Notes under the pieces: generated by a model
What the model saw: only the letters and a program-made list of their open reading frames with translations
What the model was told of the DNA's origin: nothing
The model's database searches: none
Sequence record: PP400786
Length of the DNA: 64,000 bases
Origin: Escherichia phage FL12
Direction: 5' to 3' (one strand)
Shown here: piece by piece, positions 44 to 4,293 of the stretch
Numbering within the stretch: the first letter of the stretch is position 1
Layout: every line of letters starts with the position of its first letter
Program-made: the position numbers and the translations under genes

Positions 44-115
44 TGGCCCTGGGTGGAATTGAACCACCATCTGGCGATTATGAGTCGCTTGCTTGAACCT
101 TCCAGCTACAGGGCC
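44..115 (-). tRNA. tRNA-Ile (anticodon CAU)
   Basis: Reverse complement folds as a cloverleaf: acceptor GGCCCTG/CAGGGCC, T-arm GGTGG-TTCAATT-CCACC, anticodon loop CTCATAA, 3' CCA encoded. A CAU anticodon would read Met; assigned Ile (AUA-reading, lysidine-type) from T-even phage knowledge. Confidence 0.8.
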
Positions 116-121
116 TTGATA

Positions 122-194
122 TGCTGATTGACGGAATCGAACCGCCGACGTCCTCATTACAAGTGAGGTGCTCTACCTACTGAGCTAAATCGGC
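122..194 (-). tRNA. tRNA-Thr (anticodon UGU)
   Basis: Cloverleaf on reverse complement: D-arm GCTC-AGTAGGTA-GAGC, anticodon stem CCTCA/TGAGG with loop CTTGTAA, T-loop TTCGATT. One C-A mismatch in acceptor stem; CCA not encoded. Confidence 0.8.
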
Positions 195-201
195 GAAATT
201 A

Positions 202-288
202 CGGAGGCGATAGGATTTGAACCTATGAGTCGCCGGAGCGAATGCCGGTTTTCAAGACCGGTGCATTAAACCACTCTGCCACGCCTCC
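202..288 (-). tRNA. tRNA-Ser (anticodon UGA)
   Basis: 87 nt with long variable arm; acceptor GGAGGCG/CGCCTCC, anticodon stem-loop CCGGT-CTTGAAA-ACCGG, T-loop TTCAAAT. CCA not encoded. Confidence 0.85.
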
Positions 289-290
289 AG

Positions 291-364
291 TCTCCGTGGC
301 AGGATTTGAACCTACGACATTCTGCTCCCAAAGCAGACGCTCTACCAAACTGGGCTACACGGAG
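291..364 (-). tRNA. tRNA-Pro (anticodon UGG)
   Basis: Acceptor CTCCGTG/CACGGAG, anticodon stem TCTGC/GCAGA with loop TTTGGGA, T-arm GTAGGTTCAAATCCTGC. CCA not encoded. Confidence 0.8.
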
Positions 365-376
365 TAAATTAAATTT

Positions 377-448
<72 letters not shown>

Positions 449-454
449 AAACTT

Positions 455-541
455 TGGTACGAGAAGTGGGACTCGAACCCACAAGGAAATCATTCCGCAG
501 CATTTTAAGTGCTGTGCCTTTACCAATTTGACCATTCTCGC
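455..541 (-). tRNA. tRNA-Leu (anticodon UAA)
   Basis: 87 nt with long variable arm; anticodon stem CAGCA/TGCTG with loop CTTAAAA, T-arm GGGTTCGAGTCCC, 3' CCA encoded (plus-strand tgg at 455-457). Confidence 0.85.
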
Positions 542-542
542 G

Positions 543-615
543 CTGGGAATAAAGGACTCGAACCTTTGCATCTAGCAGTCAAAGTGCTATGCCTTACCAA
601 CTTGGCTAATTCCCA
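543..615 (-). tRNA. tRNA-Gln (anticodon UUG)
   Basis: Acceptor TGGGAAT/ATTCCCA, anticodon stem TAGCA/TGCTA with loop CTTTGAC, T-loop TTCGAGT. Separated from tRNA-Leu by 1 nt. CCA not encoded. Confidence 0.8.
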
Positions 616-681: not shown

Positions 682-709
682 TTAATAATAACAAATAATT
701 CTTAAAGCA
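682..709 (-). promoter_or_regulatory. Putative MotA-dependent middle promoter upstream of the tRNA cluster
   Basis: Minus-strand TGCTTTAAG (MotA-box-like TGCTT) followed about 12 nt later by TATTAT. The same 28 nt recur at 60639-60666 upstream of gene 31. Confidence 0.55.
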
Positions 710-1217
710 AATTAAACATTTTAACGGTCGGCAAAACAATTTCTTCTTCTATATAAGAGTATTTAACACTCTCAACTACACGCAAAAAATCATAATCATA
801 ATACTCAGAAGCATTACCTAAAATATTAATAAGTCCTTCAAGCACTTTATTACCATTCACAAAGAATAAGTCAAATACGCGTTCTTCGTCTTCTTCGGAT
901 TTATTACCAAGGTCAACTTCTATATCAAAGACCTTTTTAATGAATTCTGGATAAAGTTGTTCTGAGAACAGTCCTTCAACCAAGTATTCATAAATAAAAA
1001 GCGATTGCTCGCTGAACAAGCCATTACCACAATAACGTTCAGCTTTAGTACTAGAATGTCTACTTTTAAACTTCTTTAAAAGATATTGAAATTGTAAGAT
1101 TTCATGCTCTTCTACGCCAAACAGTGTTTTAGTTTTATAGTTGTCACCATCATTTTCCCAGGTAGTGACATCAATTACGTAACCCTGTGGAATTGTAGTA
1201 CCTAAACAAATATTCAT
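702..1217 (-). CDS. Hypothetical early protein, 171 aa
   Basis: ATG-initiated ORF, start overlaps stop of upstream ORF (ATGA). Last gene of a four-ORF operon between the internal-protein genes and the tRNAs. No motif recognised. Confidence 0.6.
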   Translation of the reverse strand: MNICLGTTIPQGYVIDVTTWENDGDNYKTKTLFGVEEHEILQFQYLLKKFKSRHSSTKAERYCGNGLFSEQSLFIYEYLVEGLFSEQLYPEFIKKVFDIEVDLGNKSEEDEERVFDLFFVNGNKVLEGLINILGNASEYYDYDFLRVVESVKYSYIEEEIVLPTVKMFNLL

Positions 1218-1891: not shown

Positions 1892-2077
1892 CTATTCACC
1901 TTTAGAAATTTTATCCATAACAATAGCGATTAAACCAATTAAAAATGCTACTACAAGTGAAAACGCATTTTCTGCTGTAGTTAATAATCCGCATATAAAT
2001 CCAACAAACATTGAAAAACTAAAAGCGGAAGCAGAAATTGCAATAGCAACATTTCGAATTAATTCACAACGTTTCAT
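1892..2077 (-). CDS. Small predicted membrane protein, 61 aa
   Basis: ATG preceded by GAGGAG; two hydrophobic stretches (VAIAISASAFSFSMFVGFICGLL and FSLVVAFLIGLIAIV). First gene after early-promoter cassette A. Confidence 0.55.
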   Translation of the reverse strand: MKRCELIRNVAIAISASAFSFSMFVGFICGLLTTAENAFSLVVAFLIGLIAIVMDKISKGE

Positions 2078-2100
2078 TTTATTCTCCTCGGCAGTTGATA

Positions 2101-2135
2101 GGGTAATAATATCACTACCCTATTTAAAAGTAAAC
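2101..2135 (-). promoter_or_regulatory. T4-type early promoter (cassette A) with inverted repeat around the -10
   Basis: Minus-strand GTTTAC (-35-like), ~18-nt spacer ending in TG, then TATTAT; inverted repeat AGGGTA...TACCCT brackets the -10. Confidence 0.6.
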
Positions 2136-2147
2136 GGTTTTTATAAA

Positions 2148-2456
2148 CTATTTTATTCCGCGTGATGCAATTGTGTTCTGTCGTTTAACACCAGTTTGTT
2201 TAAAGTCATGGTCGTCAATTTGATCGGTACGAGCAACTCCGAATGATGATTTGATTTTAGCTTTAGATCCTTTAGTTATAGAAATAAACATCTCGGAAGC
2301 CCCTTTCTTAAAGTCCGAGGCGATTACTTCAACGCCGTTCTTAGCAAGTGACTTCAGAATTGCCTCCGCATACTCATCGTCAAGACTCGCCTGAGTATTA
2401 ATAACGAATGTCTTTGGCGCAGCCGCTTCATTGATAAATTCTTTAAATGTTTTCAT
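2148..2456 (-). CDS. Candidate capsid-targeted internal protein, 102 aa
   Basis: N-terminus MKTFKEFINE-AAAP resembles the T4 internal-protein capsid-targeting sequence (MKTYQEFIAE); basic C-terminus; own early promoter and AAGGA Shine-Dalgarno. Confidence 0.65.
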   Translation of the reverse strand: MKTFKEFINEAAAPKTFVINTQASLDDEYAEAILKSLAKNGVEVIASDFKKGASEMFISITKGSKAKIKSSFGVARTDQIDDHDFKQTGVKRQNTIASRGIK

Positions 2457-2485
2457 TTTATTTTCCTTATTTTCCTAATTAATTT

Positions 2486-2525
2486 TGATGAGGTAATAGT
2501 ATCACAACCCTATTTAAAAGTAAAC
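2486..2525 (-). promoter_or_regulatory. T4-type early promoter (cassette B)
   Basis: Minus-strand GTTTAC, ~18-nt spacer ending in TG, then TACTAT; shares a 39-nt identical leader (2467-2505) with cassette C (2800-2838). Confidence 0.6.
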
Positions 2526-2798
2526 TCATTTTAAATAAATTGCGTATTTTTTATAACCCGCTGACTCATGACGAAGACCCTTATCATTAGCAAAACGCTC
2601 AATGTTGTTAATTTGATTCTGATCAAGTTCAGAGATGTCAAACACGAAAAAGTTACGTTTGTTACCAACTGTTATATAGTCAGTTAAATCAATATCATAT
2701 AGGTAATTGATGTCAGCAATCAAAGTCTTGACAGCTTTGCTAATTTTTACTTTTTCGTTAAAAGCAGCTTCAGCAATAAATTCTTGATACGTTTTCAT
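2526..2798 (-). CDS. Candidate capsid-targeted internal protein, 90 aa, at the ipI position next to 57B
   Basis: N-terminus MKTYQEFIAE-AA matches the T4 capsid-targeting sequence exactly; predicted prohead-protease cleavage after Glu10. Whether the body is IPI itself or a variant cannot be decided without alignment. Confidence 0.7.
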   Translation of the reverse strand: MKTYQEFIAEAAFNEKVKISKAVKTLIADINYLYDIDLTDYITVGNKRNFFVFDISELDQNQINNIERFANDKGLRHESAGYKKYAIYLK

Positions 2799-2870: not shown

Positions 2871-3567
<697 letters not shown>

Positions 3568-3568
<1 letters not shown>

Positions 3569-4293
3569 TATAGTACCTTTAGTGTATTTTTAATTTTAGA
3601 AAAAAGTTCTTCAAGAGAACCATCGTTTGTAATTACTAAATCGCCATCACGAATTGGCAATCCAGCTTCTGTAATATGTGTATCATTGGATTTTTGACCA
3701 GGACGAACTACATGAATTACTGTAGCATCCATCGCCCTAGCCGCATCCATTTCATGATCTTGACGAGTATCAGGAACGATATAATAATCATAACCCGAGT
3801 TAAATTTATCAAGATAATCTAAAGCAAATAATTTTACCCAGTACATGCGGTCGAAGTTATTAACAATCAAATCCGTACCTAGGGCTTGCATCAGACGACG
3901 GACTGACCATTGATCTTCAATATTATTTATAACGTCAGCAATTTTGTTAAATGCTACGAAATTAACTGATTCTTTTCCTTCGTCATCAAAAACAAACACA
4001 CCTTTAATTGGGCTTTTACCATTAAGATAGCAAAATGCTTGTTCCATAATCGTGATTACTTCTAATTTAGTCAGATTTAAATTAGTCTCACGATCATAGT
4101 CAATTCCTTCAAACTCTTTACGAGTTAAGCAAGGATAGTCAGTGTTTGCTGCAAATACTCCCCATGCATAAGCCAATGCGTCCTTAATAGGACCAGCAAG
4201 TTGGTATTTAACTGCAGAATAATTGCTCATGATAAAATCAGCAGTAGTATCTTTTCCACTACGCTTTACACCGCTTAAAAAGATTAGTTTCAT
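3568..4293 (-). CDS. 1: Gene 1 deoxynucleoside monophosphate kinase
   Basis: 241 aa from the first ATG (GAGGAG Shine-Dalgarno); P-loop GVKRSGKDT near N-terminus. The track's 254-aa form starts at TTG. Confidence 0.9.

Follow-up and report, generated by a model that had tools for sequence, protein, structure and literature searches.

Ip7 of an Escherichia phage FL12 sequence, a probable capsid-targeted internal protein encoded in the polymorphic ipI locus of T-even phages

A 102-codon open reading frame (ORF) in a 64,000-nucleotide stretch of Escherichia phage FL12 DNA (record PP400786; this whole stretch is called the window) was identified by its sequence as ip7, the "internal head protein" gene of T4-like phages; it is an already known gene and not a new one. 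Its small product, Ip7, is very probably packaged in the phage head and delivered into the host along with the DNA. At the level of sequence, it has every feature of a T-even internal protein (IP) of the type that carries a capsid-targeting sequence (CTS). An earlier note, made from the letters of this DNA, had proposed a candidate capsid-targeted internal protein and injected anti-restriction effector; the CTS, the I-N-E/A site (the slash marks the predicted cut) and an IP locus are indeed present, and the analysis supports this reading as a candidate. As to what the injected protein does, we lean cautiously towards the full chain in which packaging, cleavage and injection would lead to a type IV restriction target.

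Targeting sequence and predicted processing of Ip7

According to the ORF listing, a single ORF occupies exactly 2148..2456, which confirms the 102-residue ORF described earlier and places it on the minus strand (coordinates are positions in the window; all the genes of the region lie on this strand, and their order reads from right to left). The gene starts with ATG at 2454-2456, ends with TAA at 2148-2150 and has a Shine-Dalgarno sequence, AGGA, at 2464-2467, 7 nt upstream of the start. The full translation is MKTFKEFINEAAAPKTFVINTQASLDDEYAEAILKSLAKNGVEVIASDFKKGASEMFISITKGSKAKIKSSFGVARTDQIDDHDFKQTGVKRQNTIASRGIK, with an isoelectric point (pI) of 9.4 and a net charge of +4, in agreement with the basic body that had been noticed before. 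The parts of the gene and of its product are the following.

2148..2456, minus strand: ip7 coding sequence, 102 codons plus TAA, assigned from the ORF listing, the identities of Ip7 to its relatives, PHROG 2667 and the ratio of non-synonymous to synonymous substitution rates (dN/dS)
2427..2456, minus strand: CTS, residues 1-10, ending in the predicted gp21 site I-N-E/A; function predicted from the alignment with IPI, IPII and IPIII
2151..2426, minus strand: predicted mature protein Ip7*, residues 11-102, with 92 residues, 9.9 kDa and pI 9.5, assuming cleavage after E10
2217..2414, minus strand: predicted folded core, residues 15-80, a ferredoxin/ACT-like domain
2151..2210, minus strand: basic C-terminal tail, residues 83-102 (HDFKQTGVKRQNTIASRGIK), predicted to be disordered

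The N-terminus of Ip7 (MKTFKEFINEAAAPK) begins MKTFKEFINE/AAAPK. When residues 1-10 (MKTFKEFINE) were aligned with the CTS of T4 IPII and IPIII (MKTYQEFIAE), 7 of the 10 positions were identical, and the first seven residues (MKTFKEF) are the same in Ip7 and T4 IPI; the proposal that this N-terminus is a variant of the T4 internal-protein CTS is thus well founded. As a chance test, the motif MK[TS][FY][KQ][EKQ][FL] was searched in the six-frame translation of the window, where it was observed twice against an expectation of 0.004 in 64 kb, both times at the start of an ORF (ip7 and ip9). Only one L/I-X-E prohead-protease site occurs in Ip7, I8-N9-E10, and it is followed by Ala; the predicted N-terminus of the mature Ip7* is at Ala11 (AAAPK; AAAPKTFVINTQASLDDEYAEAILK).

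A review of Black's work (PMC9026906) reports that the first 10 residues of IPIII are sufficient for its incorporation into the prohead, that residues 4 and 7 are the main ones for targeting, that processing depends on residues 8 and 10, and that L/I-X-E is the site at which the prohead protease gp21 cleaves, directly behind the Glu. The residues present in Ip7, F4 (as in IPI), F7, I8 and E10, are compatible with these determinants mapped in IPIII and with the gp21 rule. In an alignment of the Ip7 family comprising 25 homologues, down to about 43% identity, the CTS was the best-conserved segment, with a mean column identity of 0.88. The comparison with T4 IPI, IPII and IPIII and with ipI-locus variants, which the earlier note had suggested, gave a mixed outcome, with similarity at the N-terminus and none in the bodies.

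Independent evidence that diverse CTS-tagged bodies reach the virion is provided by VMC04_119 of Klebsiella phage ValerieMcCarty04 (8174-8653 of its piece), a protein of 159 residues whose CTS is MKTYQEFLNE and whose body resembles none of the compared IPs, and for which 66 peptide-spectrum matches were obtained in purified virions. The two "internal virion proteins" detected in virions of this phage were considered as Ip7 and rejected, one being an IPII homologue and the other a different CTS protein. The single locus gene of Yersinia phage fD1 was also rejected as ip7, as it has 94 codons versus the 309 nt of ip7.

Identity as Ip7 and extent of the family

The name ip7 was given by Repoila et al. 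(1994), as credited in database records and in citing papers (PMC12373910, PMC3012670, PMC2839356). Across all 102 residues, the window protein is 99% identical to Ip7 of RB15, 98% to that of RB32 and 97% to that of T2. At the nucleotide level, the 793 bp region covering ip9 and ip7 is about 95% identical to VEc74, RB33, RB32 and RB15; the genes under the RB32 and RB15 matches are named Ip9 and Ip7 and described as "internal head protein", a label that ip7 also has in T2 and many other genomes. The profile PHROG 2667, "internal head protein", was matched with E = 2.9e-41, residues 1-102 of Ip7 aligning with profile positions 1-101.

The CTS, the locus and the flanking repeats are common to the window Ip7 and the proteins of RB15, RB32 and T2. 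The window has D82 whereas these three have N82, and this is the sole difference from RB15; V90 is found in the window and RB15, in contrast to A90 in RB32 and T2, and T2 additionally has T23. In the comparison of ip7 with its counterparts in RB15, RB32 and T2, synonymous changes greatly exceeded non-synonymous ones (dN/dS of 0.04-0.13), and because of these values we regard ip7 as a functional protein-coding gene under purifying selection.

A tblastn search returned Ip7 homologues in 283 phage records, the hosts being Escherichia, Klebsiella, Enterobacter, Shigella, Salmonella, Citrobacter and Erwinia. Only seven proteins emerged when 1.84 billion representatives were searched exhaustively with a profile; three of them were weak matches, two were fragments and two were full-length clusters. 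Judged from these searches, the Ip7 family is narrow and phage-only. No Ip7 family was found in Pfam or NCBIfam, and no relative was found by sequence in the PDB. The Pfam matches to Mur_ligase_M (E = 0.021) and AbiJ_NTD3 (E = 0.092) were far below the cut-offs and were rejected. A PDB sequence match to a designed ankyrin repeat protein (DARPin; E = 0.022), which reflects a short ankyrin-like helix-loop resemblance (ILKSLAKNGVEVIASD), was discarded as a chance match, because the helix-loop is present in a single copy in Ip7 and there is no repeat architecture.

Predicted fold and tail of the Ip7 body

The family alignment served as the input for AlphaFold2. In the resulting model, the core formed by residues 15-80 is confidently predicted, with a local distance difference test score (pLDDT) of about 90, and has a beta-alpha-beta-beta-alpha-beta topology. 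Confidence is low at both ends, in the helix at the N-terminus and in the C-terminal tail, the pLDDT of the tail being below 50. The last 17 residues carry a net charge of +5. An R-x-N-T motif in this tail is kept in both clades of the family, N94 being invariant and R92 and T95 nearly invariant among the 25 aligned sequences, and this conservation suggests a functional linear motif.

Without the CTS, the body of Ip7 showed no similarity by BLASTP to IPI, IPII, IPIII, Ip5, Ip8, Ip9 or Bas37_0260 (E > 8 against IPI); the statement that the body is unrelated to that of its neighbour, encoded by ip9, therefore holds. No match of Ip7 to PF11634 (IPI_T4) was obtained at E <= 0.1, under conditions in which T4 IPI, the positive control, gave E = 7.3e-54. 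Comparison of Ip7 with the solved inhibitors also showed no specific similarity.

Proposed function and alternative explanations

Several small CTS proteins have a known target. Ip1 inhibits GmrS/GmrD of E. coli CT596, Ip2 inhibits GmrSD-ECOR21 (BrxU) and Ip3 inhibits GmrSD-ECOR17; these three are strictly paired, one inhibitor to one enzyme, and the GmrSD enzymes are very diverse (PMC12373910). Bas37_0260 inhibits McrBC (HIDEN-SEQ preprint, bioRxiv 10.1101/2025.11.20.689424), and IPIII is active in the cytoplasm without its CTS (PMC9391042). All four characterised CTS proteins (Ip1, Ip2, Ip3 and Bas37_0260) are thus inhibitors of type IV restriction, which by analogy supports a similar role for Ip7, and the purifying selection on ip7 indicates that the protein matters.

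On this basis, the following course of events can be proposed. The gene would be transcribed from its own T4-type early promoter and by read-through from upstream, including late transcripts, as the identical layout at T4 ipI suggests. The CTS MKTFKEFINE would dock Ip7 on the scaffolding core of the assembling prohead, as judged from the IPIII experiments, and gp21 would cut after Glu10 (I-N-E/A), leaving a basic protein of 92 residues and 9.9 kDa that is kept in the head with the DNA. Ip7* would then be ejected into the cell together with the DNA. There, by analogy, it would most likely bind and neutralise one particular variant of a nuclease-type host defence; the defence in question would attack modified DNA as it enters the cell and would most probably be a type IV restriction enzyme. 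The ACT-like domain and the basic R-x-N-T tail could, speculatively, be the binding surfaces.

A number of observations weigh against this proposal. No direct evidence of Ip7 in virions, cleaved or injected, was found in the literature searched, and the two virion proteomes that were traced, those of Klebsiella phage ValerieMcCarty04 and Yersinia phage fD1, contain other IPs and no Ip7 homologue. The searchable literature also contains no report of a phenotype or a target of Ip7. Since the body of Ip7 is unlike those of IPI*, IPII, IPIII and Bas37_0260, only the delivery tag and the locus are left to carry the functional analogy. Moreover, the homologues span several genera. Finally, although T2 carries ip7, GmrSD-ECOR21 and GmrSD-ECOR17 still restrict it when neither Ip2 nor Ip3 is provided (PMC12373910), which makes these two enzymes unlikely targets of Ip7.

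The sensitivity of T2 to two GmrSD enzymes would also fit a distinct possibility, to which we assign a limited probability: that Ip7 is injected and acts on a target other than type IV restriction, such as another first-response defence or a host process, for instance through binding of a nucleic acid or a small ligand. The modelled fold, generic and ferredoxin/ACT/RRM-like, with a basic and partly conserved tail, would be compatible with such a role, as would the lack of resemblance to any known type IV inhibitor and the occurrence of homologues across Tequatrovirus, Dhakavirus, Karamvirus and phages of Klebsiella, Citrobacter and Erwinia; the packaged T4 protein Alt provides a precedent for a non-restriction role (PMC9026906). 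However, type IV enzymes are inhibited in all four cases in which the target of a small CTS internal protein is known, and the sensitivity of T2 to two GmrSD enzymes says little about the others, because these enzymes are very diverse and their inhibitors strictly specific. If this alternative were true, the repertoire of T-even internal proteins would extend beyond type IV anti-restriction.

It is unlikely that Ip7 has a mainly structural or charge-balancing role, bound to the packaged DNA or to the scaffolding core and lacking a specific host target. The mature protein is lysine-rich and has a pI of 9.5, each of the T4 IPs occurs in about 300 copies and binds DNA when the salt concentration is low, loss of IPIII slows head assembly (PMC9026906), and lysines of internal proteins contact DNA phosphates (PMC3012670), all of which would be expected of such a role. 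Nevertheless, the net charge of Ip7 is only +4 and T4 lives without ip7. Few of the close relatives, a minority, possess the gene, which is exchanged as a cassette, and this is the pattern of an accessory function of the host-range kind rather than of a structural need; in addition, a folded domain and a tail motif are conserved under purifying selection.

Internal proteins travel with the phage DNA, so their action precedes the expression of every phage gene and contributes to deciding which wild strains a T4-like phage can infect. Ip7 is among the commoner IP variants, being present in T2, RB15, RB32 and about 280 phage records from several genera. The gene is already named, widely annotated and found here in a known arrangement, and the interest lies in the target of Ip7; once found, it would represent one more inhibitor-defence pair and would aid host-range prediction for therapeutic T4-like phages.

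Promoter cassette and expression of ip7

A 59-nt direct repeat (family D1) is present in three copies in the region, at 2077-2135, 2467-2525 and 2800-2858, one before each of trna.4, ip7 and ip9. This repeat aligns with the upstream region of T4 ipI, including GTTTAC and TACTAT, separated by an 18-nt spacer, and a hairpin that covers the -10 region. The cassettes that bound ip7 are given below.

2457..2525, minus strand: ip7 upstream cassette, with GTTTAC at 2520-2525, TACTAT at 2496-2501, a stem-loop remnant and the AGGA at 2464-2467, assigned by homology to the T4 ipI upstream region
2077..2135, minus strand: downstream copy of the cassette, corresponding to the trna.4 promoter and to the 3' boundary of the ip7 cassette, assigned from the repeat

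From this similarity we infer a T4-type early promoter before ip7. This promoter was not among the sites called by a generic sigma-70 scan. In the trna.4 cassette, a sigma-70-like site with a TG extension runs from 2134 to 2106, and the hairpin has a predicted energy of -12.7 kcal/mol. The ip7 cassette is chimeric: it matches the trna.4 type in its 5' half and the ipI/ip9 type in its 3' half. With a predicted energy of -3.2 kcal/mol, against -17.4 and -12.7 in the neighbouring cassettes, its hairpin is disrupted. Other, different chimeras occupy the same position before ip7 in RB32 and T2. In the ip7 leader of the window, a 9-nt tandem duplication (GGAAAATAA, twice; 2459-2476, minus strand) doubles the Shine-Dalgarno region; it is missing from RB32, T2 and T4.

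No exact late-promoter box (TATAAATA) was found between gene 1 and ip7; the nearest one on the ip7 strand is at 3924-3931, inside gene 1, and in T4 it is inside gene 1 as well. The missing late box is no argument against packaging, because T4 ipI is laid out in the same way and its product is known to be part of the virion. That the CTS is a non-functional relic and Ip7 an unpackaged, early cytoplasmic protein made after infection would accord with the early-type promoter, with the lack of a late box of its own and with the lack of direct virion evidence for Ip7, but it is very improbable, given that T4 ipI is packaged with this promoter layout, that the CTS is conserved above all other segments of the family with every residue known to matter kept, and that the homologues are found only in two IP loci.

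The ipI locus and cassette shuffling

The window belongs to the genome of a Tequatrovirus; over the first 25 kb it is 95-97% identical to T6, phage N2 and many others. The gene ip7 is placed in the polymorphic ipI locus, at the position that ipI has in T4, between 57B and trna.4. The neighbouring genes are the following.

3326-3568, minus strand: 57A
2871-3329, minus strand: 57B, matching Pfam PF23474 (Acb1) with E = 2.7e-60
2526..2798, minus strand: ip9, a CTS gene of 90 codons with MKTYQEFIAE/A; PHROG 7673 "internal head protein", E = 3.6e-55; called Ip9 in RB32 and RB15
1892-2077, minus strand: trna.4, followed by trna.3 and trna.2
702-1217, minus strand: RB32ORF135c-like gene, between the tRNAs and trna.2
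44-615, minus strand: cluster of seven tRNA genes (Met/CAU, Thr, Ser, Pro, Gly, Leu and Gln)

The order of genes at this locus differs among phages.

Window: 57B(Acb1)-ip9-ip7-trna.4
T4: 57B-ipI-trna.4
T2: 57B-ip5-ip7-trna.4
RB32: 57B-ip5-ip9-ip7-trna.4
RB15: 57B-ip5-ip9-ip7-ip8-trna.4 (flanking genes taken from the note of the record)

In RB32 and RB15, ip5 precedes ip9 and ip7, whereas the window has no ip5; the ip9-ip7 arrangement of the window recurs as a single-piece match in Pu-Krd-SF1-7, Lv5cm, SP1 and IME340. The RB32 record describes ip7 and ip9 as "flanked by 43 bp direct repeat", and repeated promoter and stem-loop elements are known to flank IP genes (PMC2839356). That recombination between such repeats shuffles the IP cassettes was proposed by Repoila et al., as restated by Arbiol et al. 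(PMC2839356), and the chimeric promoter cassette of ip7 is the footprint expected from this process.

Homologues of ip7 were also observed at the other IP locus. In Dhakavirus VR5, a 52% identical Ip7 is encoded between ip3 and denV (1801-2100 of the VR5 piece), and in Klebsiella phage phi1_146055 a 49% identical one is encoded downstream of the endolysin gene e (1801-2100 of its piece); the order in both is e-ip3-ip7-denV. In Karamvirus myPSH1140, the gene for a 93% identical Ip7 overlaps the end of 57B (1801-2109 of its piece) and has no promoter cassette of its own. The presence of nearly identical Ip7 sequences in different genera suggests recent horizontal transfer. Judged from gene order and sequence identity, ip7 is an interchangeable IP gene cassette of T-even phages that moves between the two IP loci.

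Since 57B matches Acb1, the IP locus adjoins another counter-defence gene. This match identifies 57B as a candidate nuclease directed against CBASS, the antiphage signalling system that relies on cyclic oligonucleotides; many phage records still label 57B "RNA ligase". For ip9, the comparison with RB15 and RB32 gave 1-3 non-synonymous and 0 synonymous changes, opposite to the pattern in ip7, and these are too few to call positive selection. The CAU tRNA of the window, called Met, is annotated as tRNA-Ile in T4 and RB32. The RB32ORF135c-like gene is likewise present in RB32 and T2 and is absent from T4.

Comparison with known CTS proteins

Bas37_0260 of phage KarlGJung (Bas37, MZ501089) resembles Ip7 in having a CTS, in its small size (77 residues) and in being encoded directly upstream of trna.4 in the ipI locus. 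It was considered as a possible Ip7 and rejected as a different protein: hhalign aligned only the first 21 residues, which correspond to the CTS and the linker, and the BLASTP comparison of the bodies gave no match.

T4 IPII and IPIII are injected proteins that, like Ip7, are basic and carry a 10-residue CTS ending in I-x-E/A; their bodies, however, are unrelated to that of Ip7. The locus of IPII and IPIII is the one occupied by the Ip7 homologues of the Dhakavirus and Klebsiella phages, whereas the ip7 gene of the window lies in the other IP locus.

With T4 IPI, Ip7 shares the locus between 57B and trna.4, the MKTFKEF start, the type of promoter cassette, a similar size and, presumably, a similar route by way of the prohead core, gp21 cleavage and injection. 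The two proteins differ in the propeptide, which has 19 residues in IPI (cut after ITE) and a predicted 10 in Ip7, and in the fold: IPI* consists of two beta-sheets flanked by terminal helices (PMC3012670), whereas the model of Ip7 has a beta-alpha-beta-beta-alpha-beta core followed by a tail.
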